Virus record (IMG/VR): IMGVR_UViG_2718218135_000001
Span: 32,001 to 96,000 of that record
DNA length: 64,000 bases
Source of the DNA: a virus
Taxonomy: Duplodnaviria > Heunggongvirae > Uroviricota > Caudoviricetes
Direction: 5' to 3' (one strand)
In this document: piece by piece, positions 6,190-33,800 of the stretch
Position numbering within the stretch: position 1 is the first letter of the stretch
Layout: each line of letters begins with the position of its first letter
Translations under genes and position numbers: made by a program
Notes under the pieces: generated by a model
Told to the model about the DNA's origin: nothing
The model's input: only the letters and a program-made list of their open reading frames with translations
Databases searched by the model: none

Positions 6190-6714
6190 TTAAAACGGTA
6201 AAATCCGTTCGACCCAATCGAAGAGAACTATCGTTCGTCCGCGCTCGCCAACTCTCATTGCGACCTGACAGGCATCAACGCCTAACGAACACCCCTCAAT
6301 TTCACGGCCATCCGCCATGTAGACCCTTATAGACTTTTGCGCCTCATGAGCTTGACGACAAATTTTGAAGAAATCGCGGCGAGATGGCCGATTGTCCACA
6401 TAGTCAGGGTGTACAGTGAGCCTACCTGTAAACATCTTGTCCACTTCGACAGGTGTAATTGTTTCTATGGTGCTAACTCGCTCCAATGGAAGACGAACAC
6501 GATGTTCTTTACTTCCTATAACGGGAGAAAGATCTAGCTTATTGCGTGCGGTAAGCAGACCAATAACGTAAAGACAAAACGTCTGACCATCATCGATCGT
6601 GACCCTTACAGGTATATTCCTTGCCCGTAGGAACTGCAAACTAAACTCCACGTTAGAGTAGTCGCGGGGCCAGACCTCTGCTGGGATGCCGTATGTAATG
6701 TCTGTGATCGTCAT
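6190..6714 (-). CDS. hypothetical protein (174 aa), translationally coupled to upstream gene
   Basis: start overlaps upstream stop (TAATG). Confidence 0.55.
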   Translation of the reverse strand: MTITDITYGIPAEVWPRDYSNVEFSLQFLRARNIPVRVTIDDGQTFCLYVIGLLTARNKLDLSPVIGSKEHRVRLPLERVSTIETITPVEVDKMFTGRLTVHPDYVDNRPSRRDFFKICRQAHEAQKSIRVYMADGREIEGCSLGVDACQVAMRVGERGRTIVLFDWVERILPF

Positions 6715-7602: not shown

Positions 7603-8142
7603 TTATTTGTCCAGCACTTTGTACTTGTTCGTAATCAAACGCTCACCCTTTCTGGTAACTGTAAAACCAAACGGCGCTTTGCTGTTTTTACGTAACACGC
7701 TTTCAGCGAGCGCTTCATCGGTAGGTTGTATAGTTGAATTGTCTATCCAGTCGATGAGGGTAAGAAAGTTTAAAAGTTTCATGCTCGTGACGCCCATCTT
7801 ACAGGCTATGTCACGGACGGTACGAATCTGCCTGCATTTTGTTTCATGTGCTGCGATAGGTGTCTTTGAATTGTTTGGTGTCAGTAACGTATCCAGTGTA
7901 TTAAAGAACCCCCTTGCGGATTCAGACTTAATAAGACCTGAGTCGCTCATATCACACGCGATACGGTACAGAATATTGCTGTTGTTCATGAAGGGATAGT
8001 TCTCAACGAATCTGACGAATGCTTGTGCATTTTTCTCTCCGCATTTGTAATCCAGCGGATTATCTACGCGCCAGAAAAATGCACTGTTGTTTTTTGCGTC
8101 AAAGATATCAACAAATGGTAGTTCAGCTAAATAGTTCATCAT
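7603..8142 (-). CDS. hypothetical protein (179 aa)
   Basis: ORF; start codon lies inside a 12-bp inverted repeat (8137-8175). Confidence 0.5.
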   Translation of the reverse strand: MMNYLAELPFVDIFDAKNNSAFFWRVDNPLDYKCGEKNAQAFVRFVENYPFMNNSNILYRIACDMSDSGLIKSESARGFFNTLDTLLTPNNSKTPIAAHETKCRQIRTVRDIACKMGVTSMKLLNFLTLIDWIDNSTIQPTDEALAESVLRKNSKAPFGFTVTRKGERLITNKYKVLDK

Positions 8143-8204
8143 GTGCTCCTTTGTAACTTGACGAGCACATGATGAACTACGAAATAAGGGGAAAAAGTGG
8201 AAGA

Positions 8205-8483
8205 TTACGGCAGCCGTTTGAGAATATCGGCCAGATCTTCTTTGGTCATACCCGAGTTTTCGTAAATCTTCATGACCTTTTCACGAGCCTTTGCAGTAGT
8301 CTCTAATGACGTAGCTATCTTATCAAAATCACCCATCGTCATATTGGACAGCACCAGATTGATGATGTCTGCCTTTGACAGTTTTATGCTGCGTTCACGC
8401 AGTCGATTCTGAAAGGTCTCTAGTTTATCGTTTGCTTTTTCGGTTAACTTAACCTGGCAGTTAATAGCGCGTTTCTCGCTCAT
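8205..8483 (-). CDS. hypothetical protein (92 aa) coupled to helicase
   Basis: starts 3 nt after the helicase stop. Confidence 0.5.
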   Translation of the reverse strand: MSEKRAINCQVKLTEKANDKLETFQNRLRERSIKLSKADIINLVLSNMTMGDFDKIATSLETTAKAREKVMKIYENSGMTKEDLADILKRLP

Positions 8484-8485
8484 GC

Positions 8486-10045
8486 TTACTCTCTATCCAA
8501 AACAGTGAAATCGAATGTGCTGCCAACCGGCAAGACCCCCTCGGCAAACCCAGGCGTCGTGTCGATAATGTGTTTCCGCTCATATGAATGCGACATGAGG
8601 TATTTGTTGCTCACGTCGATGAAGTCGGTAATAAAGCACACGTTAGCCTGATTTTTCTTGGCTCGTAAGCCACGACCGACACGCTGTCTCATTTCAACTT
8701 CTGCTTTCCCGCCACCACCCAGAATCACCGCGCCTACGCTTGGAACGTCGACACCAACATCCAGAATGGTTGAACCAATGAGAACATCTATCTTGCCTGC
8801 CGCCAGACTATTAAGTTTTGCTTGTCGGGTAGTCTGGTTTGATTCTCCGTAGATGAAATCGACCTTGAGGCCACTCTCTTTCATCATTTCCATCAAGATC
8901 TGACCATGACGCTTCAGACGAACCAATGTCATACAGTTCAGACCGTGACTCTTGTACATTAGCGCTTCACGCACAATAGCTTCGTTGCGGCCCAGATTAT
9001 AGACGATGCCTAACTGATAGGCTTTCTGGTAAGCCGTGCTCATTCCAACCCTAAAATTCAGGTGTTTTGAAGCAAGTTCGGCTCTAATCCGCGTCTCATC
9101 TGGAGTGTACGCGATTTTATGATATAAAAAGTATGGTTTCGCTAAAATACCTCTGTCGATCAAATATTTCTCCGTTACTTTTATCTCGATGCGACCCGCA
9201 ACGGCCATGAGACGCATATTTGCTTCAGTCGAGTCCTTCATGAACGGCGTAGCTGTCAGCGCCAGACGGTAGTCGGCATTGGTACACAACCGGGCTATAT
9301 CGTAGAAGTTTGAGCCGGATGATTCGTGCGCTTCTTCCAGAATCAGCAGAGAAACGCTGGACAGGAAGCGCTTAACCAATTCCCGGCGTTTCAGGTGATA
9401 CTGTTTTTTCTCTGGAGATGCGTCGCGCGACGGCTCTTCGAGAAAACTAGCAAGGGTCTGAACCGTGGCAACGTTGATATGGCGCGATACCTGAAACTCA
9501 CCAGATCCAATCACCCCAACTTTCTGACCTTTCAGCCACGGCTCGCCATTCTTCGCGCGGTAGTCGATGGATTTCTGGAAGTTCTCTGCCATCTGGAACA
9601 TCAGAACCGAGCGCGTGGTTAAAAACAGCGTCATACGACCAATGCGAGCTGCTGCCTTACACGCTACGTTCGATTTACCGCCACCCGTCGCAATCTGGGC
9701 AATCATCATCCCTTCGCGCACCAGTGTTTCCACTGTCTGATCCTGATACGCGTAGTCCGGGTTATACGGGAATGGATTAACCACCGGATTCGGCTTACCC
9801 AGCGCGGGAGCTTTTTCCTTGCGAACATGCACGCATTTGATGCCAGCTTTCAGAAGATTGGTCGCAACTGGCTTCGCAAACCCAGCCGGGAACGCGTTTT
9901 TACTCCAGTTGAACATCGTGCTGGTCCCTTTCCAGTCACCAGCCTCCACTTCATAGCTCAACATCTCCTGAACAAGCCGTTTCACGTTGTCATCAGCGCC
10001 AGAAATCAGCGCATTGACTGCATTTGATACAATCCGAACAGTCAT
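8486..10045 (-). CDS. superfamily-2 DEAD/DEAH-box helicase
   Basis: Walker A IATGGGKS, DEAH-type box LILEEAHE, SF2 motif order; AAGGAAAGAGG RBS. Confidence 0.8.
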   Translation of the reverse strand: MTVRIVSNAVNALISGADDNVKRLVQEMLSYEVEAGDWKGTSTMFNWSKNAFPAGFAKPVATNLLKAGIKCVHVRKEKAPALGKPNPVVNPFPYNPDYAYQDQTVETLVREGMMIAQIATGGGKSNVACKAAARIGRMTLFLTTRSVLMFQMAENFQKSIDYRAKNGEPWLKGQKVGVIGSGEFQVSRHINVATVQTLASFLEEPSRDASPEKKQYHLKRRELVKRFLSSVSLLILEEAHESSGSNFYDIARLCTNADYRLALTATPFMKDSTEANMRLMAVAGRIEIKVTEKYLIDRGILAKPYFLYHKIAYTPDETRIRAELASKHLNFRVGMSTAYQKAYQLGIVYNLGRNEAIVREALMYKSHGLNCMTLVRLKRHGQILMEMMKESGLKVDFIYGESNQTTRQAKLNSLAAGKIDVLIGSTILDVGVDVPSVGAVILGGGGKAEVEMRQRVGRGLRAKKNQANVCFITDFIDVSNKYLMSHSYERKHIIDTTPGFAEGVLPVGSTFDFTVLDRE

Positions 10046-10090
10046 AAACCTCTTTCCTTCGTGCCTTTTGTATGGTAATTGGCTATTATG

Positions 10091-10106
10091 TTAAGTAAGT
10101 ACTTAC
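10091..10106. promoter_or_regulatory. TAAGTA-N-TACTTA palindromic box
   Basis: ttaagtaagtacttac in the divergent region between helicase and ParB-like operon. Confidence 0.5.
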
Positions 10107-10109
10107 ACA

Positions 10110-10808
10110 ATGGATTGTATCAAAAATATGGATGTGAAAATTACGATTCTACAGGTGGAAGTCGCGAACCTGCGTCCGAACCCCTGGAATACCAACTCCG
10201 TTGGGGCGCAAAACTTCGAAAAACTGAAAGGTTCCATCGAAAAGTTGGGCTTTTTTAAGCCAATTCTGGCGCGAGAGCTGGACGGCGGCATTTTTGAGAT
10301 TCTCGGTGGCGAACATCGCTGGCGTGCCGCGATGGAGCAGGGCATTTCAACGGTTCCCGTAATGTCGGTGGGAAAAATTAACGACCTGGTGGCCAAACAG
10401 ATGTCTCTCGTCGATAACGAGCGCTACGGCGAAGACGATCAGATCGCTTTGCAACGCTTAATCGAAGAAATTCAGTCTGAAATTGACTACCGGTTGTCTG
10501 ATATCGCCCCGTATGACGACGAAATGGCGGCAACGCTCGCCAAAGCATCCGTTATCGATCTTGAAGCGCTGGAAGCGCTCTCCCGCGGCGATGACGAGCC
10601 GGTCGGTGAGGACAAACGCGAGAAAATCGAGCGAGTCGGTGCTGAACACCAGACGATGCGCTTCAAGGTGACGTTCGATGCGTCAGATCGCGTCGCCGAT
10701 ACCATCAAAACCATCATCAAAGAGCAGGGAATCAATACCGGTAACGAAATGGAGAACGCCGGGGAAGCCTTGGTGTGGCTGGTCGACTACTACAAGGAGC
10801 GTATGTAA
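10110..10808 (+). CDS. ParB-like nuclease-domain protein 1
   Basis: ParB/Srx N-domain signature LRPNPWN ... GGEHRWRAA; start choice uncertain. Confidence 0.7.
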   Translation: MDCIKNMDVKITILQVEVANLRPNPWNTNSVGAQNFEKLKGSIEKLGFFKPILARELDGGIFEILGGEHRWRAAMEQGISTVPVMSVGKINDLVAKQMSLVDNERYGEDDQIALQRLIEEIQSEIDYRLSDIAPYDDEMAATLAKASVIDLEALEALSRGDDEPVGEDKREKIERVGAEHQTMRFKVTFDASDRVADTIKTIIKEQGINTGNEMENAGEALVWLVDYYKERM

Positions 10809-11476
10809 TGACCAAGAACTTTGAAATCGTATATCGAAACCCGGCAGAACTTATCCCGTATGAGATGAACGCCAAAAAACATGACGAACAGCAGATCCAC
10901 GACCTGGCGGCTGCCATCAAAAAGCGCGGTTTTGACCAGCCGATCACGGTCGACAAGCACGACGTCATCATTACTGGTCACGGTCGTCGCGAGGCGGCAC
11001 TTCTGGCTGGTCTGGAGCGTGTGCCTGTCATCGTTCGCGACGATCTGAGCGAAGAAGAAGTGAAGGCGAAGCGTCTTGAAGACAACCGCCTGGCCAGTAT
11101 TGACTACGACGCCATCAAATTGCAGCAGGAACTGGAGTCCCTGGTGCTGGGTGACGTTGAGGTCTTTGGTTTTGAAGAGCGAGAGCTGAACGTGCTTGTT
11201 GGCAGCATGACCGAAGAGATGGAAACAGGCTCTCTGGTGCTCGATCTGGGTGAAGAGACGGAACGCCAGAAAGAAGAGCACACCGAGATCAGTCGCGAAG
11301 TGGCCTCTGAAGAAGTCCGAGTCATCGACGTATTGGGCTTTAAAACGCTCCCTGCTGGCTCTGCCATTGTGGTTGGGGATTTGCTTGCCCACATGGAAGA
11401 AATTACGGGAGAAAGCGGGGTAGACGCTTTCGTGGCGTATGCGGAGAAAGTTTCCTCTGGGGAGCTGGCTGCATGA
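10808..11476 (+). CDS. ParB-like nuclease-domain protein 2
   Basis: HGRREAA arginine motif; start overlaps upstream stop (TAATG). Confidence 0.7.
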   Translation: MTKNFEIVYRNPAELIPYEMNAKKHDEQQIHDLAAAIKKRGFDQPITVDKHDVIITGHGRREAALLAGLERVPVIVRDDLSEEEVKAKRLEDNRLASIDYDAIKLQQELESLVLGDVEVFGFEERELNVLVGSMTEEMETGSLVLDLGEETERQKEEHTEISREVASEEVRVIDVLGFKTLPAGSAIVVGDLLAHMEEITGESGVDAFVAYAEKVSSGELAA

Positions 11477-12111
11477 GCAAATACACCATCAACGTATCGT
11501 TTCAGACCCGCGTGAACAAAACCACGCGCACGCTGGAGATTGCCGAATCGTTCGGTCTTGGCCTGGACGAAAAAGAGTGGACGCTTTACGACAATCTGGA
11601 GCTGGAAGTGAAGCAGGGCGATGTGGTGTACATCACCGGCCAATCCGGTTCCGGTAAATCCGTTGTGCTGCGCGAGCTGCAACGCCAGATGAAGGATGAA
11701 GGGCTTTCTGTAGCCTCCATCGATGACTTTGCCTTCGACAATGAGGTTAACGTCATTGACCAGCTGGGCAAAACCACCAGCGAAGCGCTGGGGCTGCTGT
11801 CTATGGCCGGATTGAATGACGCCTATCTCTTTGTGCGTAAGCCATTCGAGATGTCTGACGGCCAGAAATACCGTCTCAAGATCGCCAAGCTGATCGAGTC
11901 CGGCGCGAAAGTCTGGGCTGCCGACGAATTTGGCGCTGTTCTCGACCGTGTAACCGCCCAGGTTGTGGCGTCGAACCTCCAGCGTGCCGCCCGTAAGGTT
12001 GGTGCGACGGTAATGGTGGCGACGACCCACGAAGACCTGAAGAACGCGCTGCGCCCGGATATGCAGATCACCAAGCACTACAAAGAACGCGTGAAGGTGG
12101 AATATGCCTGA
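11473..12111 (+). CDS. compact ABC-type ATPase (212 aa)
   Basis: Walker A GQSGSGKS, signature-like SDGQKYRL, Walker B VWAADEF, H-loop TTHE; ATGA overlap with upstream gene. Confidence 0.7.
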   Translation: MSKYTINVSFQTRVNKTTRTLEIAESFGLGLDEKEWTLYDNLELEVKQGDVVYITGQSGSGKSVVLRELQRQMKDEGLSVASIDDFAFDNEVNVIDQLGKTTSEALGLLSMAGLNDAYLFVRKPFEMSDGQKYRLKIAKLIESGAKVWAADEFGAVLDRVTAQVVASNLQRAARKVGATVMVATTHEDLKNALRPDMQITKHYKERVKVEYA

Positions 12112-12358
12112 TTTGAAGATCGTAGAGCTGAAGCCATCGAAAGAGGCTGACAACAACAACGTTGAAGTCATCCGCCTGCTGGAAGAAGCACTCCAGTACG
12201 CCAGAGAAGGCAAAAGCCAGAGCCTGGCACTGCTGATGATCAACAACGACGGCAGTGTGCTGGATTGCTGGCATAACGGTGGGCGTCCATACGTCATGGT
12301 TGGGGCGATAGAATCGCTTCGCCTGGACTTCATCAATGCCAATATCGAGCGTAGGTGA
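12104..12358 (+). CDS. hypothetical protein (84 aa)
   Basis: overlaps neighbours on both sides. Confidence 0.45.
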   Translation: MPDLKIVELKPSKEADNNNVEVIRLLEEALQYAREGKSQSLALLMINNDGSVLDCWHNGGRPYVMVGAIESLRLDFINANIERR

Positions 12359-13254
12359 TCGACATGACAGGCATCATCATCAAACGCTACCGCCCGGAAG
12401 AGTTCCCGCGTCATCTGGACTTTCTGGAGCGTATGACCGTTACCAAAGGCACGGTTGAAGACTGGCACGCGCTGAAGTCGCTGCACTACAAGACGGATGG
12501 TAAGCCGTTTGCGCCAACGTATTATCGCTGCGAACTGGACGACCGGCTGGTGGGCGTCGTGGTTATGGCTTACCCGAAACTGCTGCTGGCGCCTCGCCAT
12601 CGCATGTTTCCTAAGCTGAAGCCAACCACCAATACCACCGTGGCCAACCAGTATTGGGGGCGGTACGTGAACAACAACTTTGCGGTGATCAGCCGTTCCG
12701 TTGTGGACACTCAGTACCGCGGTGTCGGCGTCTCCTATCGAATGATTAACCTGGTTAGCAGGATGCATAACCGGCCAATCATCGAGATTCAGTCGTCCAT
12801 GAGCAAATACAACCCGTTCGCCATGAAAGCAGGGTTCCAGTTCATACGTCCGGAGCGTCCGAAGAGCTATGAGAGTGCGTTGCGTGTTTTCCAGCGCCAT
12901 TTTCGCTCCGACCCTGGAGACAACGAAGCGATCGTCAAAGAGCTGTTCGCCATGAGTGAGTCTCGCCGTCGTCGTGCGCTGCGCGATCTGGTCGCGGACT
13001 ACCACAAGAACAGTTCCCTGGCCAAAGCCGGGCGTAATCGTGGCACGACGATTCAGGATATTGCCGACAGTCTGGTGGACGAGGCCAGCATCGTGAAGTT
13101 GCTCAAGGATATTCACAACCTGAGCTTCACGTCTCCGCTGTATGGCGTGTATCGAAACCCGGACTTCGGTCGTCAGTTGCCTGACACGCTGCCACTGCTG
13201 GCATTCGATAAGCAGCCTTTGAATAAACCTCTTGAAATTGCATTACCGGCATAA
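12355..13254 (+). CDS. hypothetical protein with GNAT-like Q/R-x-x-G-x-G motif (299 aa)
   Basis: QYRGVGVS resembles acetyl-CoA-binding motif A; start GTG 12355 or ATG 12364. Confidence 0.5.
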   Translation: MIDMTGIIIKRYRPEEFPRHLDFLERMTVTKGTVEDWHALKSLHYKTDGKPFAPTYYRCELDDRLVGVVVMAYPKLLLAPRHRMFPKLKPTTNTTVANQYWGRYVNNNFAVISRSVVDTQYRGVGVSYRMINLVSRMHNRPIIEIQSSMSKYNPFAMKAGFQFIRPERPKSYESALRVFQRHFRSDPGDNEAIVKELFAMSESRRRRALRDLVADYHKNSSLAKAGRNRGTTIQDIADSLVDEASIVKLLKDIHNLSFTSPLYGVYRNPDFGRQLPDTLPLLAFDKQPLNKPLEIALPA

Positions 13255-13263
13255 GGATTTGCC

Positions 13264-13530
13264 ATGACGTTGACCGATAAACAAAAAGACATCATCAAAA
13301 CCATCAATTTAGGCCATGAGCGTGGGTATCTGCTCGATCTGGACGAGCTGCTTGAGGTTCTGCCGTACAAAACGACCAAACAGAGTATGCAGTTCTCTAT
13401 CCGCGCACTGGTGAAAAAGGGGCTGGTGGAGAAGGGAATGTGCCGCCAGCGCGGCGATTCAGGTTATCACCGTCGCACGCTGGGACTGACCACGTTAGGT
13501 CGTGCAAGAGCCAAATTACTGGTGATGTAA
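13264..13530 (+). CDS. small basic protein, possible winged-helix DNA binder (88 aa)
   Basis: ORF; basic C-terminus; sits directly upstream of the perfect inverted repeat. Confidence 0.45.
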   Translation: MTLTDKQKDIIKTINLGHERGYLLDLDELLEVLPYKTTKQSMQFSIRALVKKGLVEKGMCRQRGDSGYHRRTLGLTTLGRARAKLLVM

Positions 13531-13551
13531 ACCGGTCTGGGAGCCAGATTA

Positions 13552-13615
13552 AGAACCTGCTTCCGTATATATAATTAACTAAGTGATTAATTAAATATAT
13601 ACGGAAGCAGGTTCT
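13552..13615. repeat. perfect 21-bp inverted repeat with 22-bp AT-rich spacer
   Basis: agaacctgcttccgtatatat ... atatatacggaagcaggttct; one arm repeated exactly at 43887-43908. Confidence 0.85.
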
Positions 13616-13647
13616 GAAGGCTCCCCAGCCCGATTTTAAACACCCAG

Positions 13648-13726: not shown

Positions 13727-14368
13727 ATGACTGTAGAAAAAGACGAGAGCAAAACTCGCCTGACACCAGCTGAGTGGGCAGAAGCCGAAGCGAAATGGAC
13801 TTCTGGCGAATACACACTCTCCAGGCTGGAGGAAGAGTACGGCATTCGTCGTGAAACGCTCTCCAGACATTTCAAAAAGCGTGGATTAGAGAAAGGCGCG
13901 GACTCCGTTGGGAAGATGGTGCGCGAGTCGCTCAAATCCGACGCAGAGCTGCGTGCGAAGGCGCGTGCAGAGAAAATCGAAGAGCGCCGGACTCGTTACG
14001 ACGATTGGGCGTTCGCACTCGGTCGTATGGTGATGCATGAGGTGGCCATAGCCAAGAAGGACGGCAGGCCACTGGCAGCCATCGAAGATGACCTGAAGAG
14101 TCTCCAGCGTGCCAGCGGCACACTTGCTAAGTGCTTCGAAATATCGTCGAAAGCGCTCGGTATGGATCGCGTGGAGAACGAGGACGACGAAATCCCGAAC
14201 CTGGTATTTGGCGAACTTACGCCTTCCCAGGTGGCGCAGCTGCGTAAGGAAGATGATGAGCCGGATCTGATTGATGACGATCTGCTTGAGTCACTCGAAG
14301 AGGAAGCACTGAGCGAAGCTGAGGGCGATTCTGAAGCGTCTGGTGATGAAAGTGATGGGAGCGTCTGA
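13727..14368 (+). CDS. terminase small subunit (putative)
   Basis: 213 aa immediately upstream of TerL; acidic C-terminal tail. Confidence 0.55.
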   Translation: MTVEKDESKTRLTPAEWAEAEAKWTSGEYTLSRLEEEYGIRRETLSRHFKKRGLEKGADSVGKMVRESLKSDAELRAKARAEKIEERRTRYDDWAFALGRMVMHEVAIAKKDGRPLAAIEDDLKSLQRASGTLAKCFEISSKALGMDRVENEDDEIPNLVFGELTPSQVAQLRKEDDEPDLIDDDLLESLEEEALSEAEGDSEASGDESDGSV

Positions 14369-14370
14369 CT

Positions 14371-15627
14371 ATGGCCATCCCGTCGTCTCTGAGTCTCGTA
14401 CAGCTGCATTCTGGGCAGATGCAAGTCTTCCAGTCGCCACATCGTTTCAAAGTGGTGTGTGCGGGTCGACGCTGGGGTAAATCCCGGTTGTCGATCTCCA
14501 CCATCATCCGCGCGGCAGCCAAAGAGAAGAAGCAACGTGTCTGGTATGTCGCACCGACTTACCAGATGGCTCGCCAGATCTTGTGGGATGACCTGCAGGA
14601 AGTTCTGCCGCGCAAATGGGTTCGTAAGAAAAACGACACCACGATGACCATCGTGCTGAAGAACGGCTCTGAAATCGCGCTGAAAGGTGCGGATAAGCCC
14701 GATACGCTTCGTGGTGTGGCACTGCACTTTGTGGTGCTCGATGAATTTCAGGATATGAAGCCTGACACCTGGTACAAGGTACTGCGTCCGACACTGTCCT
14801 CCACCCGTGGCGGTGCGCTGATCATCGGTACGCCAAAAGGCTTCTCCGAGTTCCACAAGCTGTGGACTATCGGTCAGAACAAAGATTTGCAACGCAAGGG
14901 GCAGTGGAAGAGCTGGCAGTTCGTTACGGCCGATTCTCCGTTCGTACCGAGCGCGGAAATCGAAGCAGCGAAGAACGATATGGACCCTAAATCGTTCGCA
15001 CAGGAATACCTGGCCAGCTTCGAAAACATGTCCGGACGCGTTTACTACCCGTTCGACCGCAATGTGCATGTGAAGCCACTCCAGTTCAATCCGAAACTGC
15101 CGATCTGGGTTGGTCAGGACTTCAACATCGACCCTATGTCATCGGTCATCCTGCAACCGCAGCCAAATGGTGAACTGTGGGCTGTGGACGAATTGGTGTT
15201 GTTCTCTTCTAACACGGCTGAAGTGTGTGACGAGCTGGAGCGTCGATACTGGCGCTGGAAATCTCAGGTCACTATCTTTCCTGACCCGGCAGGTGCGTAT
15301 CGCCAGCACGCACGCGGCGAATCTGACGTCGACATCTTCAAAGAGAAAGGTTTCCTTCGAGTCGATTATCCGAAGAAGCACCCGCCGATCGCAGACCGTG
15401 TTAACGCAGTGAACCGCATGTTGATGAGTGCCTCGGGCGAAACCCGGTTGTACATCGATCCGAAGTGCAAACACCTCATCGACTCGCTGGAGAAGGTGAT
15501 CTACAAGCCAGGCTCACGCGATATGGATAAGACTGGCGGCATCGAACACAGTGCGGATGCGTTGGGTTATCCGGTTCATCGTAGGTATCCGGTGAAAAAT
15601 CGTGTTATTCTTGGTGGATCTAGATAG
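14371..15627 (+). CDS. terminase large subunit
   Basis: Walker A CAGRRWGKS, Walker B VVLDEF, C-terminal nuclease-type acidic residues. Confidence 0.85.
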   Translation: MAIPSSLSLVQLHSGQMQVFQSPHRFKVVCAGRRWGKSRLSISTIIRAAAKEKKQRVWYVAPTYQMARQILWDDLQEVLPRKWVRKKNDTTMTIVLKNGSEIALKGADKPDTLRGVALHFVVLDEFQDMKPDTWYKVLRPTLSSTRGGALIIGTPKGFSEFHKLWTIGQNKDLQRKGQWKSWQFVTADSPFVPSAEIEAAKNDMDPKSFAQEYLASFENMSGRVYYPFDRNVHVKPLQFNPKLPIWVGQDFNIDPMSSVILQPQPNGELWAVDELVLFSSNTAEVCDELERRYWRWKSQVTIFPDPAGAYRQHARGESDVDIFKEKGFLRVDYPKKHPPIADRVNAVNRMLMSASGETRLYIDPKCKHLIDSLEKVIYKPGSRDMDKTGGIEHSADALGYPVHRRYPVKNRVILGGSR

Positions 15628-15660: not shown

Positions 15661-17235
15661 ATGGAATTGACTGACAAGCAAATCAAAGACCTTGTGGCAC
15701 GACGCCACCCTGAATATGAGAAGAAAAAAGAACATTGGGACTTCCTCGCCAGCACCTACGCTGGCGGGCGTGCCTGGTTCAACGACAATATCTTCCGTTA
15801 CTTCAAAGAGGGCGATCAGGAGTTCAAAGAGCGCCTGGAACGCGCTTATCGCTTCAACCATACGCGCGAAGTGGTAAACCTCATCAACAAATACCTCTTC
15901 AAAGAGGTCATTCACCGCAACACTGATGAAGCACCGGAGCAGATCCGCAATTTCTGGAAGCGAGCCACGCGCCAGAACGCCTCCATCGATGCGTTTATGG
16001 CGGCTATCGATCTGCAATCATCCATTTATGGCCGTATCTGGGTTGTCGTGGATAGCACGATGAACGTCGATGTTGAGTCTGTTGCAGACGAGAAGAAAAA
16101 TGATGCGCGTGCCTACGCTTACTGGATTTCGCCGCAGCAGCTGCTTGATGTTGCCTGGGATGAAGACGGCAATATGTTGTGGGCGCTGATTGTTGAAATC
16201 GCGCGCGACGACGAAGATCCGTTCACTTCAACCGGGCAGGAATACCAGCGTTACCGTCTGTGGACGCAAAACGAGTGGTATCTGTTCCGTGAAGAAGTGA
16301 AGAAGGGTTCCGGAAATAGCGGTCGCCGTCAGGCCAAAGTCGTTCTGGAGGATAGCGGCCAGCATAATCTGGGCGTGGTGCCGGTGTTCCCGGTGGATTG
16401 CATTGGTGAAAGCGAGTCTCCGTATTTTAGCCCGTCGTTGATTGACGATATTGCCTATCTTGATCGCGCCGTGGCCAACTACCTGTCGAACCTTGACGCG
16501 ATTATTCAGGATCAGACATTCAGCCAGTTAGCGATTCCGGTTCAGTCCCTGCTGCCGGGCGATGAAAACCACACCAAAGTGCTCGAAATGGGGACAAAAC
16601 GTGTCTTCACCTTCGATTCTGAGAGCGGTAATCAGCCATTCTATCTGTCTCCAGACCCGAAACAGGCTCAGATGATCATCACCACGATTAAGACGGTGAT
16701 TAATGAGATCTACCATTCCGTTGGTGTGGCTGGTGAGCGAACCAAGCAGGATAACGCGCAGGGTATCGACAACTCTTCGGGGGCAGCGAAGATGTACGAC
16801 TTCCAACGTATTAACAGTCTGCTGGTGACAAAAGCAGAGCGCCTCGAAAGGGCAGAACGCCAAATGATGGAGTTGGCTGCGAAATGGATGGGCATCGAAT
16901 TGGATGAAGACCACTCTCTGATCGCTTACCCGGAGAGTTTCGATATTCGTGGTCTGACTGACGAATTTGCCGTCGCTGAGAAATTGTCGCTGTTACAGGC
17001 GCCTGATTCTGTACGTCGTCATCAGATGGAAATGCTCATAGAAAAGATCTTCCCGAATATTTCCGAAGCGATGCAAAAGGAATTTAAAAAAGATCTCTTG
17101 AAATTTCCTCTAAAAAATGCTCCTGATGCCCTTGAAAATAAGTTAGTACTTACTTATGATCGCGATACAGTCCAAGGAAGCGGACAAGATCAACCCCGAG
17201 GGAATGGGGACTCATCTACTCAAGAGACCGAGTGA
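15661..17235 (+). CDS. portal protein
   Basis: 524 aa directly after TerL in canonical order. Confidence 0.75.
   Translation: MELTDKQIKDLVARRHPEYEKKKEHWDFLASTYAGGRAWFNDNIFRYFKEGDQEFKERLERAYRFNHTREVVNLINKYLFKEVIHRNTDEAPEQIRNFWKRATRQNASIDAFMAAIDLQSSIYGRIWVVVDSTMNVDVESVADEKKNDARAYAYWISPQQLLDVAWDEDGNMLWALIVEIARDDEDPFTSTGQEYQRYRLWTQNEWYLFREEVKKGSGNSGRRQAKVVLEDSGQHNLGVVPVFPVDCIGESESPYFSPSLIDDIAYLDRAVANYLSNLDAIIQDQTFSQLAIPVQSLLPGDENHTKVLEMGTKRVFTFDSESGNQPFYLSPDPKQAQMIITTIKTVINEIYHSVGVAGERTKQDNAQGIDNSSGAAKMYDFQRINSLLVTKAERLERAERQMMELAAKWMGIELDEDHSLIAYPESFDIRGLTDEFAVAEKLSLLQAPDSVRRHQMEMLIEKIFPNISEAMQKEFKKDLLKFPLKNAPDALENKLVLTYDRDTVQGSGQDQPRGNGDSSTQETE
17138..17157. promoter_or_regulatory. TAAGTA-N-TACTTA-like box inside portal coding sequence
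   Basis: ataagttagtacttacttat within the 3' end of the portal ORF. Confidence 0.35.
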
Positions 17236-30835: not shown

Positions 30836-33800
30836 ATGGAACAGTTCAAGAAGAAAAAGTTACCGCTGTTTATTGCCGGTGCGGGTGGTAAAAAAAGTAG
30901 CAAAAGCTCCAGCCGTACACCGGTTGAAGCCGACGATACCGTAAATTCTCGTGCAATGGCCGCTATCCTCGATCTTCTTGGGGAAGGGGTAATTGGCGGC
31001 TTAGTAAATGGCGCAAGATCTATTTTTATCGACGATCTGCCGATTGTAAATGAAGACGGTTCCTCCAACTTCAGCGGAATCACATGGGATTTTCGCGACG
31101 GTTCACAAGACCAGACTCCAATGTCTGGCTTTGATTTCGTTGAAACGCCTAAATCCGTCAATATCCAGTTAAAAAAAACGCATTATGTAACGGTTTCAAT
31201 CGATAACGATGAAGCTGATCGGGTTCGTGTCATCATGAAGTTTCCTTCTTTGCGAAGCATAGATAAAAAAACTGGTGACACGAACGGTACGACTGTTGAG
31301 TACAAGTTCCAGATAGCAAATGGCGACTCAACATTTGTAGATGTGGTCGCGGAAGGTGAAAAAAGCGTTGGCATTAAGCTAACAGCAAAGAAGACCGGCG
31401 TTTATTACCGTAGCTATGAGCTGAAGCTGCCTAAGCCTGGACGAGCATACAAGGTTCGTGTAGTCCGTATTACCGATGATAACAGTAGCCAGTATCTCTA
31501 TAACGATACATGGGTGGATTCAATCGGGGAAATTGTCGATACACCGATGAACTATCCAAACTCTGTTTTGGTTGGATTGAAGGTAAACTCTGAGCAATTC
31601 GGCAGCACCATGCCATCTCGCTCTTATCTGGTGCGTGGCCTAAAAATTCGAGTACCTTCAAACTATAACGAGTCCAGTAACACTTACGCTGGGGTATGGG
31701 ATGGCACTTTTAAGCTGTTGTCTTCTTCGAACCCCGCGTGGATTCTCTTTGATTTGCTGACCAATGCTCGATATGGCCTTGGTCAGTATGTGTCGGAATC
31801 TATGATTGACCTTGGCCAGTTGTACCAGATTGGTCGATATTGTGACGAAGAGGTCGATGATGGCTTTGGTGGCAAAGAGAAACGCTTTGCAATCAATACG
31901 CAGATCACCAGTCGACAGGACGCATACCGGCTAATTCAGGATATTGCTGGAGCATTCCGCGGCATGGTGTTTTGGGCTGGTGGGATGGTTAACATCATGC
32001 AGGATAGCCCATCAGATCCGGTAATGATGTTTACCAACTCTAACGTCAAAGATGGATTGTTTACCTATAAAGGTTCTGCGCGTAAAGATCGCCCATCCGT
32101 TGCGCTCGTAACCTACAACAACAAGGAGGACGGTTATAAGCAAAACATCGAGTACGTTGAAGATCAGGACGCAATGCGCCGTTATGGTGAGCGTAAGACA
32201 GAAGTCGTAGCATTTGGCTGTACAAGCCGAGGGCAGGCTCACCGAGTTGGTTTGTGGCTTTTGTATACCGCCAGAATGGAGTCGGATGTAATTACATTTA
32301 CTGCCGGCTTAGACGCGTCATTTTTGATGCCTGGTGAAACCGTTCTGATTCAGAACAAATATCGCGCAGGCAAACGTAACTCAGGTCGAATTGTGGCGTT
32401 TACCAAAAACAGCGTCACACTCGATGCGCCTGTGTCGTTAGCCAAAGGCGGCTGCTTTATTCGAATACTGAATCAGGAAGGCAAAATCGTTGAACGCGAT
32501 GCTCTTGAAACTGGCGAAAATATAACAAAAGTTACGTTTTCAAAAGCCCTGTCGTCAGCGGAAACGCCTGTTTTGAACGGTGTCTGGACAATTACAGAAC
32601 CAGATCTCGAACCTATGCGCGTTCGCATCGTTAACATCGCTCAGGGGGAAACGTCGGGTAGCTTTGACATCACCGCTGTTGAAAACAATCCGTCTAAATA
32701 TGAGGCGATCGACAATGGTGCAACGCTTATCCCGCAGAATACGACGGTATTGGACCCGACTTACTCCAAGCCGTCTAATTTGCAAATCACTGAAGGGACT
32801 TATCTCTCAAGCCCGGGCAACCTGTCAGTAAAACTGACTGCAACATGGGAAGGGAAATCTCCAGAGTATTGGATCAGTTGGCGACGTTCTGATGCAAACA
32901 ATGTATCGAACTGGCAATCGACGCGTGTAACCGAAGAGCAATACGAAATCGTTAATGTCGCGGAGAATGGACGCTACGACTTCCAACTGTATGCGGTTTC
33001 ATTCAACGGTAAAAAAACAGAAATTATCAGCACCGTCTACAAAGTTCAGGGGACGATGACGCCGCCGGATGCACCGACTGCACTGACGGCCGTGGGCGAC
33101 TACCGCAACGTGATTCTGAATTGGGTTAACCCGGACTCAATCGACCTCGATCACATCAACGTGTATGCATCCCGGACCAACAACCTGGACACTGCAAAAC
33201 TAATTGCCGAAGCAGCCAGTACCACCTTTACGCACGCAGGTCTTGGAGATAGCGAAACTTGGTTCTATTGGGTTCGTGCAGCAAACAAACGCGGAATGTT
33301 GAGCCAGCCGAACTCCAATTTGGGCACTGAGGCGATGACGAAAGATGTTCTGTCTTTCCTGACCGGGAAGATCACTTCTTCGGAATTGGGGCAGGAACTG
33401 CTTGAGGAAATCGACACCAAAGCCTCGCAGGAAGCCGTCGACGCAATCAACAAGCAGATGGAAGAAAGCCTGAAAAGCCTTGATGACAAATTTACTGAGA
33501 CCGATCAACGGATTGAAGAAGCCCAAAACGTTCTTAGAACGGAAGTTTCTAATACTGCCAGCAAGGTGGAAGAGGCTCTTAAGGAGGTTGAAAACTCAAA
33601 TGCCGCATTAATTCAGTTGAAGGAAACTGTTTCAGAGCAGGACAAGGTCGTTGCTGGAGCGGTTGAGGCCGCGAATGCAGCACTGGACAATTCATCGGCT
33701 TTAGTTGCGGAGGAACGTGAGGCACGAGTCGAAGGCGACTTGGCGAACGCGAAAGAAATCGAGGCAATGAAGTCAACTGTAGATAGCAGTTTGGCCACCA

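Follow-up and report, generated by a model that had tools for sequence, protein, structure and literature searches.

We identify a conserved two-gene operon in a 64,000-nucleotide (nt) window of viral DNA (Caudoviricetes; positions 32,001 to 96,000 of IMG/VR record IMGVR_UViG_2718218135_000001; the window is this whole stretch), which belongs to an Escherichia coli SSU5-like phage-plasmid. By sequence, its first gene encodes a superfamily 2 (SF2) helicase that is a full-length homologue of bacteriophage T4 UvsW, and its second encodes a 92-amino-acid (aa) partner that is most likely a ribbon-helix-helix (RHH) DNA-binding protein. We propose, giving the proposal about an even chance of being correct, that this UvsW-type operon joins a recombination and replication helicase to an RHH regulator, serves core DNA metabolism and is on in lysogeny. 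A preliminary description of the window had reported a 519-aa helicase followed 3 nt later by a 92-aa protein; both open reading frames (ORFs) are as it gave them, with a 2-nt spacer and the partner ATG beginning at the third base past the stop. The two genes and their junction are as follows.

8486-10045, minus strand: UvsW-family SF2 DNA helicase, 519-aa ORF; Pfam DEAD, ResIII and Helicase_C; phrog_16, 'DNA helicase'
8205-8483, minus strand: 92-aa partner, modelled as most likely an RHH DNA-binding protein; PHROG phrog_1466 (E 2e-49), function unannotated
8484-8497, minus strand: gene junction, read from the sequence as ...GAT AGA GAG TAA GC ATG...

A full-length UvsW homologue

The helicase carries motifs I (ATGGGKS), II (EEAH), III (TATP) and VI (QRVGRGLR), and the residues G121/G123/K124, E237-E238-A239-H240, T264/T266/P267 and Q454/R455/G457/R458 are invariant in the family alignment. 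Its N-terminus (approximately residues 1-95) is UvsW_N-like and includes W38 and G40 of a WDGR-type motif. We found 1841 homologues, many of them full-length at 45-50% identity. Pfam UvsW_N is recognized in 15 of 21 sampled relatives (48-52% identical to the window protein); the window helicase alone falls below the Pfam UvsW_N threshold. A single-sequence search of the PDB returned XPBII, Rad25, UvsW and UvrB as best matches, over the C-terminal half. With a 21-member family profile, the best PDB match is T4 UvsW (2oca_A, E 2.5e-30), aligned in one stretch from profile positions 13-485 to chain residues 12-464. Comparison of the family with T4 UvsW by hhalign gave a probability of 99.6% and E 2.6e-24 over 435 columns (residues 14-491 against 14-485), an alignment that takes in the N-terminal WDGR-type motif. 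As far as homology can establish it, the window helicase is a full-length homologue of T4 UvsW with its ATPase motifs intact, at an identity of ~23%.

The resemblance to T4 UvsW (A18/UvsW family; PDB 2OCA) covers UvsW_N and both RecA-like domains. T5 D10 and the archaeal XPB/XPBII proteins belong to the same SF2 subgroup, and XPBII and Rad25 are the next-best PDB matches to the C-terminal half of the window protein, but the match to XPB and D10 is confined to the motor core and lacks the N-terminal domain. To our knowledge, no RHH partner has been described for D10 or XPB. D10 is reported to be a UvsW/XPB relative with branch-migration activity (PMC5180179).

The gene content of the related phage-plasmid Cyrano, whose helicase CYRAN_118 is annotated 'UvsW helicase', fits this assignment. 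Cyrano encodes a gp32-type single-stranded DNA-binding protein (SSB; Pfam gp32, 224.7 bits), a RecA-family recombinase and a 5'-3' exonuclease (FEN); its UvsY is its authors' annotation only, and a Pfam search gave no match. This set is a T4-style recombination toolkit, and the corresponding region lies outside the window. A gp32-like SSB and a RecA-family recombinase are features that this type of genome, as seen in Cyrano, shares with T4, and the earlier suggestion that the pair could be replication or recombination machinery gains support from both the helicase family and these companions. We note that the Cyrano recombinase, CYRAN_55 (L177, 3066-5405), is 779 aa long and bears an intein with a LAGLIDADG homing-endonuclease domain, called from matches to Pfam Intein_splicing and LAGLIDADG_3.

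A small partner with a predicted ribbon-helix-helix fold

The partner had been described as having no recognizable motif. This holds for sequence searches, which gave no match in Pfam, NCBIfam, PADLOC or the PDB, and fails at the level of the fold, where an RHH protein is the most likely solution. A word-indexed search with the partner returned close relatives only (at least 59% identity); an exhaustive hidden Markov model search of 1.84 billion representatives gave 25 hits, including relatives at 23-40% identity. The length of the protein is constant across homologues from 99% to ~25% identity. On the deeper alignment, AlphaFold2 (AF2) produced a model with a predicted local distance difference test (pLDDT) score of 86.3, extended at residues 1-14 and helical at 15-30, 37-47, 50-76 and 81-90; this model was used instead of one built on a shallow alignment (pLDDT 66). 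The layout comprises a strand at approximately residues 5-13 (INCQVKL), a helix at 37-47 with the N-cap LSKAD, a long helix at 50-76 and a C-terminal helix at 81-90 (MTKEDLADILKRL). The family preserves both the strand pattern INCQVKL and the N-cap LSKAD. The AF2 model thus has the topology of an RHH protein, namely an N-terminal strand in which polar and hydrophobic residues alternate, and then a pair of helices with a short turn between them. The best-conserved segment of the family is the C-terminal helix motif MTKEDLxxILKRL / LSPEExxxLL.

Fold searches with the partner placed NikR, AcaB, TraM, PcfF and Reg576, whose structures we take to be those of RHH proteins, among the top matches, although these matches are weak; matches in BFVD were uninformative. 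A Vreelandella prophage provides a further connection. Its helicase is 51% identical to the window protein, and the protein at the partner position, of 93 aa, can be aligned with the family from end to end (hhalign E 3.5e-4). It scores above the Pfam ParG gathering threshold (22.1 against 21.4 bits) and matches the ParG structure PDB 1P94. A homologue search with this protein found only itself. The extended family alignment is collinear throughout, and in hhalign its profile was matched to the RHH core of ParG (P 6.4e-5) and, for a CopG sequence entered by hand, to that of CopG (P 6.4e-4). Controls (lambda Cro, T4 UvsW.1 and shuffled sequences) gave P values of 0.24-0.54, and the RHH proteins Arc, Mnt and omega were likewise unmatched (P 0.3-0.5). 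Profile searches, which the preliminary description had suggested as a check, led to T4 UvsW for one protein and to the ParG and CopG cores for the other. On the strength of the AF2 model, the recurring RHH fold matches, the CopG and ParG profile matches and the positional orthologue that passes the ParG threshold, we are fairly confident in modelling the partner as an RHH protein with a C-terminal helical extension.

The predicted strand-helix-turn-helix topology, with a Ser/Thr N-cap, is shared with ParG of TP228 and CopG of pMV158. An RHH domain followed by a C-terminal helical domain for oligomerization or interaction, as predicted here, is found in TraM of pED208 and PcfF of pCF10, and P22 Mnt likewise combines an RHH with such a domain. 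The partner nevertheless cannot be placed in any named RHH family with statistical support, and its inter-helix loop is ~5 residues longer. It also differs from ParG- and TraM-type RHH proteins in its companion, which is an SF2 helicase rather than a ParA/ParM ATPase or a relaxase. The Joint Genome Institute (JGI) name for the partner, 'dTDP-4-amino-4,6-dideoxygalactose transaminase', stems from a spurious weak DegT match and was rejected.

In T4, as in the window, a small gene (uvsW.1) directly follows the helicase gene, and a rather improbable alternative is that the partner is a functional analogue of UvsW.1, that is, a helicase helper without sequence specificity. The identical position, directly 3' of a UvsW homologue, speaks for such an analogy, as does the description of UvsW.1 as a 'potential DNA-binding partner' of UvsW (PMC7824862). 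Homology between the two small proteins was rejected, however: with the UvsW.1 sequence taken from the T4 record, hhalign gave a probability of 0.14%, BLASTP gave no alignment and the extended profile gave P 0.24. The preliminary description had named clear orthology to a known phage replication helicase and its accessory subunit as grounds for refutation; of this only half applies, the helicase being clearly homologous to a phage recombination helicase and the partner not to UvsW.1. UvsW.1 is trihelical and unrelated to the most likely RHH partner, with no similarity by sequence or profile, and its structure is not among the partner's PDB sequence or fold matches. Read from the sequences, the tail of UvsW.1 is rich in Asp and Glu, while the partner protein is rich in Lys and Arg, and the RHH fold predicted for the partner is characteristic of proteins that bind specific sequences.

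Linkage of the two genes across phage-plasmids and distant phages

The window region is 94% identical to genes SSU5_123 to SSU5_127 of Salmonella phage SSU5, and it is matched by 783 plasmid records from Klebsiella, Escherichia, Enterobacter, Yersinia and Salmonella, the best of which are E. coli plasmids at 98-100%. SSU5_123 (hypothetical) and SSU5_124 (DEAD/DEAH box helicase) are direct orthologues of the pair at 91% and 98% identity, as are CYRAN_117 and CYRAN_118 of Cyrano at 57% and 92%; in both phages, as in the window, the pair is syntenic with a ParB-ParB-ABC operon and with the terminase genes. In SSU5 and most plasmids, DNA conservation ends at ~8212-8215, at the 3' end of the 92-aa gene, which argues that the helicase/partner pair and the ParB-like operon form one conserved block. 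The gene beyond this edge (7603-8142, 179 aa, phrog_13473) is variable among relatives.

Partner homologues lie directly after a UvsW-type helicase gene in every one of seven contexts (the helicase being 524-547 aa where the gene is complete), and a ParB-ParB-ABC operon diverges from the pair in each of the five contexts whose sequence extends far enough on that side. Four of the elements with distant partners are on contigs of 100-113 kb, and helicase relatives at ~50% identity show the same layout beside terL in a Vreelandella chromosome and a 99-kb metagenomic contig. Among 79 distant viral loci, a profile search of all ORFs detected an RHH-like ORF downstream on the helicase strand in at least 48; ~8 more were recognized by eye, and several of the remaining loci are truncated. 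When the count is limited to the immediately adjacent ORF, an RHH-like gene is found in only about one quarter of the distant loci. The two genes, whose co-occurrence had been put forward earlier as a point to check, form a conserved core operon linked across a very wide evolutionary range.

A predicted small membrane-protein gene (~60-90 aa) often lies between the helicase gene and the RHH-like gene in distant viral loci (L101-L139 and others); its product combines a hydrophobic core with an acidic tail and carries the C-terminal motif '...PIGF', and it is absent from SSU5-like elements.

At the window junction, the helicase TAA stop (8488-8486) is followed by the 2-nt spacer (8485-8484) and the partner ATG (8483-8481), and a purine-rich, Shine-Dalgarno (SD)-like AGAGAG (8494-8489) lies inside the 3' end of the helicase gene. 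Such a layout would permit translational coupling. In relatives, the two genes are anywhere from overlapping by 8 nt to ~100 nt apart, and tight coupling is therefore not universal. In three comparisons, the partner and the helicase are 57% and 92%, 26% and 61%, and 26% and 51% identical, respectively; the partner evolves much faster than the helicase, as is typical of small DNA-binding regulators. In the literature searched, neither a UvsW-type helicase paired with an RHH protein nor the lysogenic expression of such a pair has been described, nothing was found on the function of the SSU5 or pHCM2 helicase, and for the SSU5 and Cyrano pair genes nothing functional has been published beyond annotation and the CYRAN_117 transcriptome value.

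Expression in a related lysogen

Published RNA sequencing of an E. coli LF82 lysogen carrying the SSU5-like phage-plasmid Cyrano (PMC9928086, Table 1 and S1 table) places the operon among the expressed genes. Normalized reads are 114.5 for CYRAN_117, the 57%-identical orthologue of the partner, against a median background of 9.8 (11.7-fold), and 46.1 (4.7-fold) for the helicase gene CYRAN_118. In the same data, RepA reaches 133, ParA 50 and a putative repressor 96. Values for the ParB-like operon are 5-9.5, for the terminase 7-8, for the DnaB-type helicase 21, for primase 11, for the Pol III alpha subunit 10, for the gp32-like SSB 9 and for RecA 10 (PMC9928086). These counts indicate that the helicase/partner operon is transcribed in the plasmid state about as strongly as maintenance genes, and that the divergent ParB-like/terminase operon and the other lytic replication and recombination genes are silent. 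Of the recombination genes, only the pair is expressed in the plasmid state. In contrast to T4, the window element is a temperate phage-plasmid, and in its relative Cyrano the operon is transcribed in lysogeny. From this transcription, we infer that the pair also works in the plasmid state and not only during lytic growth.

Expression in lysogeny, unlike that of the other replication genes, is also a point in favor of a helicase-based anti-phage defence or anti-defence pair, produced by the lysogen for the protection of the host or the element. The preliminary description had entertained this idea, for which we find no support and which we regard as very unlikely. Curing the SSU5-like plasmid p2 from Klebsiella raised phage plating and plasmid uptake, an effect that speaks for defence, though its authors credit it to a restriction-modification system (PMC8969562), and the helicase weakly resembles PbeA and type IV restriction helicases in a generic way. 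However, the PADLOC matches extend to a generic SF2 core only (PbeA at no more than 79 bits and a type IV restriction endonuclease), with none for the partner; homology to UvsW spans the full length of the helicase, N-terminal domain included; and the pair has no nuclease or other effector domain. In hundreds of elements, and also in distant ~100-kb phages, the genes lie in a fixed, syntenic core block beside those for packaging and not in a variable hotspot. The pair looks like core DNA-metabolism equipment rather than a defence island.

The divergent control region and its repeats

As the preliminary description had it, the pair is divergent from the ParB-like operon across a palindrome box; the gap measures 64 bp. 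The following elements lie in or beside it.

10046-10109: divergent control region, 64 bp, between the helicase operon and the ParB-like operon (start 10110)
10092-10105: palindrome TAAGTAAGTACTTA inside the control region, a copy of an 18-bp genome-wide motif
10023-10035: left arm of a perfect 13-nt inverted repeat (TTTGATACAATCC), in helicase codons 4-8
10112-10124: right arm of the 13-nt repeat (GGATTGTATCAAA), at the annotated 5' end of the ParB-like gene

The palindrome is kept at the same position in the SSU5, Cyrano, Xenorhabdus, Klebsiella-type and Vreelandella relatives. It takes the form TAAGTAA-N4-TTACTTA, or TAAGTCA-N4-TGACTTA in distant ~100-kb phages, where it lies ~60-78 nt upstream of the helicase gene. 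Allowing one mismatch, the 18-bp palindrome TAAGTAAGT|ACTTACTTA has 18 matches at ~13 sites in the 64-kb window, against 1.4 expected, with match starts at 2547, 10092, 15625, 17139, 22171, 28676, 35490, 39252, 43994, 54878, 58489 and 61900. Many of these sites are found a short distance before a Shine-Dalgarno sequence and start codon. The motif looks like an operator or promoter element that serves a global regulator in SSU5-like phage-plasmids. It is present upstream of the helicase in 36 of 65 distant loci. A role as the partner's own operator is unsupported for this genome-wide motif, which shows no correlation with RHH detection (23 of 44 against 13 of 21 loci).

The 13-nt repeat has only two perfect copies in the window and is thus specific to the helicase/ParB-like locus. 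Its core, GGATTGTATC, is kept on both sides in most enterobacterial SSU5-like loci, and the right arm is non-coding in some relatives (an in-frame stop follows in L010), yet identical there. Because of the repeat, the two divergent mRNAs have a sequence in common at their 5' ends; the repeat may act as a looping operator or as an mRNA element used by both. A scan for the sigma-70 consensus found a promoter neither in the intergenic region nor upstream of the partner, within the 3' end of the helicase gene.

The repeated 18-bp palindromes also bear on whether the partner could be a ParG-like centromere-binding protein of plasmid partition, with its place beside the helicase incidental, which we judge to be most unlikely. 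Besides the palindromes, the element being a plasmid with a small ParA and the positional orthologue passing the Pfam ParG threshold agree with such a role. Genes for type Ib centromere-binding proteins directly follow parA, but the partner gene in Cyrano is ~70 kb from parA, and in every context examined the upstream gene encodes an SF2 helicase and not ParA. The partner gene is also present in an apparently chromosomal Vreelandella prophage, and the palindromes are scattered before operons rather than clustered as in a centromere.

A proposed role in DNA metabolism and its alternatives

Our favored explanation is that of an operon for core DNA metabolism. By analogy with its family, the helicase would remodel branched DNA and RNA-DNA hybrids through fork regression, branch migration of Holliday junctions and D-loops and unwinding of R-loops, alongside the element's gp32-like SSB and RecA/UvsX-type recombinase. 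The modelled partner would dimerize and, at a specific site, place its beta-ribbon in the major groove of the DNA, serving as the sequence-specific DNA-binding component of the operon; it would most likely autoregulate the divergent helicase/ParB-like control region, with its conserved C-terminal helix available for oligomerization or contact with the helicase. In the plasmid state, the pair may, for example, hold replication and recombination intermediates or R-loops in check.

Several observations weigh against this explanation. The window partner itself has no significant match to any RHH family, and a Pfam search of ten distant positional homologues gave no RHH match. The control-region palindrome occurs genome-wide, and its presence is uncorrelated with detection of an RHH gene; neither it nor the 13-nt repeat can be assigned as the partner's DNA target, and the GGATTGTATC repeat shows no clean covariation with the partner's beta-strand residues, its differences following clades. 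The simple sigma-70 scan found no promoter that would account for the 2.5-fold excess of partner over helicase RNA. The biochemistry of the helicase is extrapolated from a protein at 23% identity, and the expression values are those of Cyrano (57% identity for the partner and 92% for the helicase) and not of the window element.

A motor-plus-adaptor arrangement is a less probable alternative that we take seriously. Here the partner would bind defined sites and recruit or stimulate the helicase through its C-terminal helix, with autoregulation secondary. ParR and ParG tether ParM and ParF in this manner, and TraM and PcfF organize relaxosome motors; in parMR and parFG operons, a motor gene is followed by a small RHH gene, with repeats upstream. 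The window has an RHH gene after an NTPase gene, as in parF-parG and parM-parR, and the order of helicase then RHH with upstream repeats is that of the parMR/parFG layout. Other points in favor of an adaptor are the tight or overlapping junctions (2 nt in the window, -1 in L010, -8 in L007 and -4 in several distant loci), the C-terminal helix motif as the best-conserved part of the family, the RHH-plus-helical-tail architecture shared by the fold matches TraM and PcfF, and the exclusive linkage of the partner to the helicase. However, many distant loci have a membrane-protein gene in between and a spacing of up to several hundred nt, some helicase homologues have no detectable RHH nearby, and the RHH protein diverges much faster than the helicase.

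A more specific version, which is doubtful and drawn by analogy, would make the partner a targeting subunit of the UvsW-type helicase, and the pair a site-directed DNA-remodelling device kept on in the plasmid state. Such a device would watch over particular loci, for example by unwinding R-loops or D-loops at a lytic origin or at the 18-bp palindromes, keeping recombination-dependent lytic replication off while RepA-driven plasmid replication is running. If true, it would be a helicase analogue of the adaptor-motor logic of ParR/ParM and ParG/ParF and a new control point for the plasmid-to-phage switch, and the targeting of the helicase to defined sites would be a new route to sequence specificity for a branch-migration helicase. 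If the partner is merely an autoregulator, the result is an ordinary improvement in annotation.

For the operon of core DNA metabolism that we favor, our analysis provides a first functional handle on two core genes annotated as 'hypothetical/helicase', assigning one to the UvsW family and proposing an RHH fold for an unannotated PHROG. SSU5-type phage-plasmids, including S. Typhi pHCM2-like and Y. pestis pMT1-like elements and many from Klebsiella and E. coli, are widespread carriers of accessory genes whose replication control is almost unstudied.

Neighbouring genes and repeats

The block continues to the right of the control region and is bounded on the left by a hairpin-like repeat.

8132-8179, minus strand: inverted repeat, 17 bp perfect with a 14-nt loop, directly downstream of the partner gene, at the 3' boundary of the conserved block
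Start 10110, plus strand: ParB-like 1, 232 aa, ParB_N domain, first gene of the divergent operon
Plus strand: ParB-like 2, 233 aa, second gene of the divergent operon
Plus strand: ABC-type ATPase, 212 aa, divergent operon
Plus strand: small ORF, 84 aa, divergent operon, after the ABC-type ATPase
Plus strand: unannotated protein, 299 aa; Cyrano orthologue annotated as MK0520-like 'ABC-type ATPase fused to a predicted acetyltransferase'
Plus strand: small ORF, 88 aa, last of the divergent operon before terS
13727-14368: terS
14371-15627: terL
15661-17235: portal

As RNA, the repeat at 8132-8179 would sequester the SD sequence and start codon of the variable 179-aa gene (7603-8142), and it is a candidate translational or terminator hairpin. 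The ParB-like operon (10110-13530, plus strand) lies directly upstream of terS and terL and, in every relative examined, accompanies the helicase pair; it does not serve as the partition system of the plasmid. A 670-aa ORF at 11104-13116 on the minus strand, antisense to the ParB-like and ABC genes, is of low complexity and rich in Ser and Arg, and is almost certainly a non-coding shadow ORF and no gene.

The stretch separating the 88-aa gene from terS contains an inverted repeat at 13549-13618, with 24-nt arms that are 96% complementary and a spacer of 22 nt. The deposited linear SSU5 genome ends at approximately window position 13592, ~8 nt from the centre of this repeat (~13583), which makes it a candidate cos or terminase cleavage site. 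The helicase/partner and ParB-like operons would accordingly lie ~3.5-5.4 kb from one end of the virion DNA.

At 6190-6714 on the minus strand, a 174-aa protein matches Pfam Flag1_repress, the FljA repressor of phase-1 flagellin (E 6e-69), which points to a flagellin-phase regulator aboard the phage-plasmid; homologues occupy the same relative position in Klebsiella-type relatives (L008 and L010-L012).

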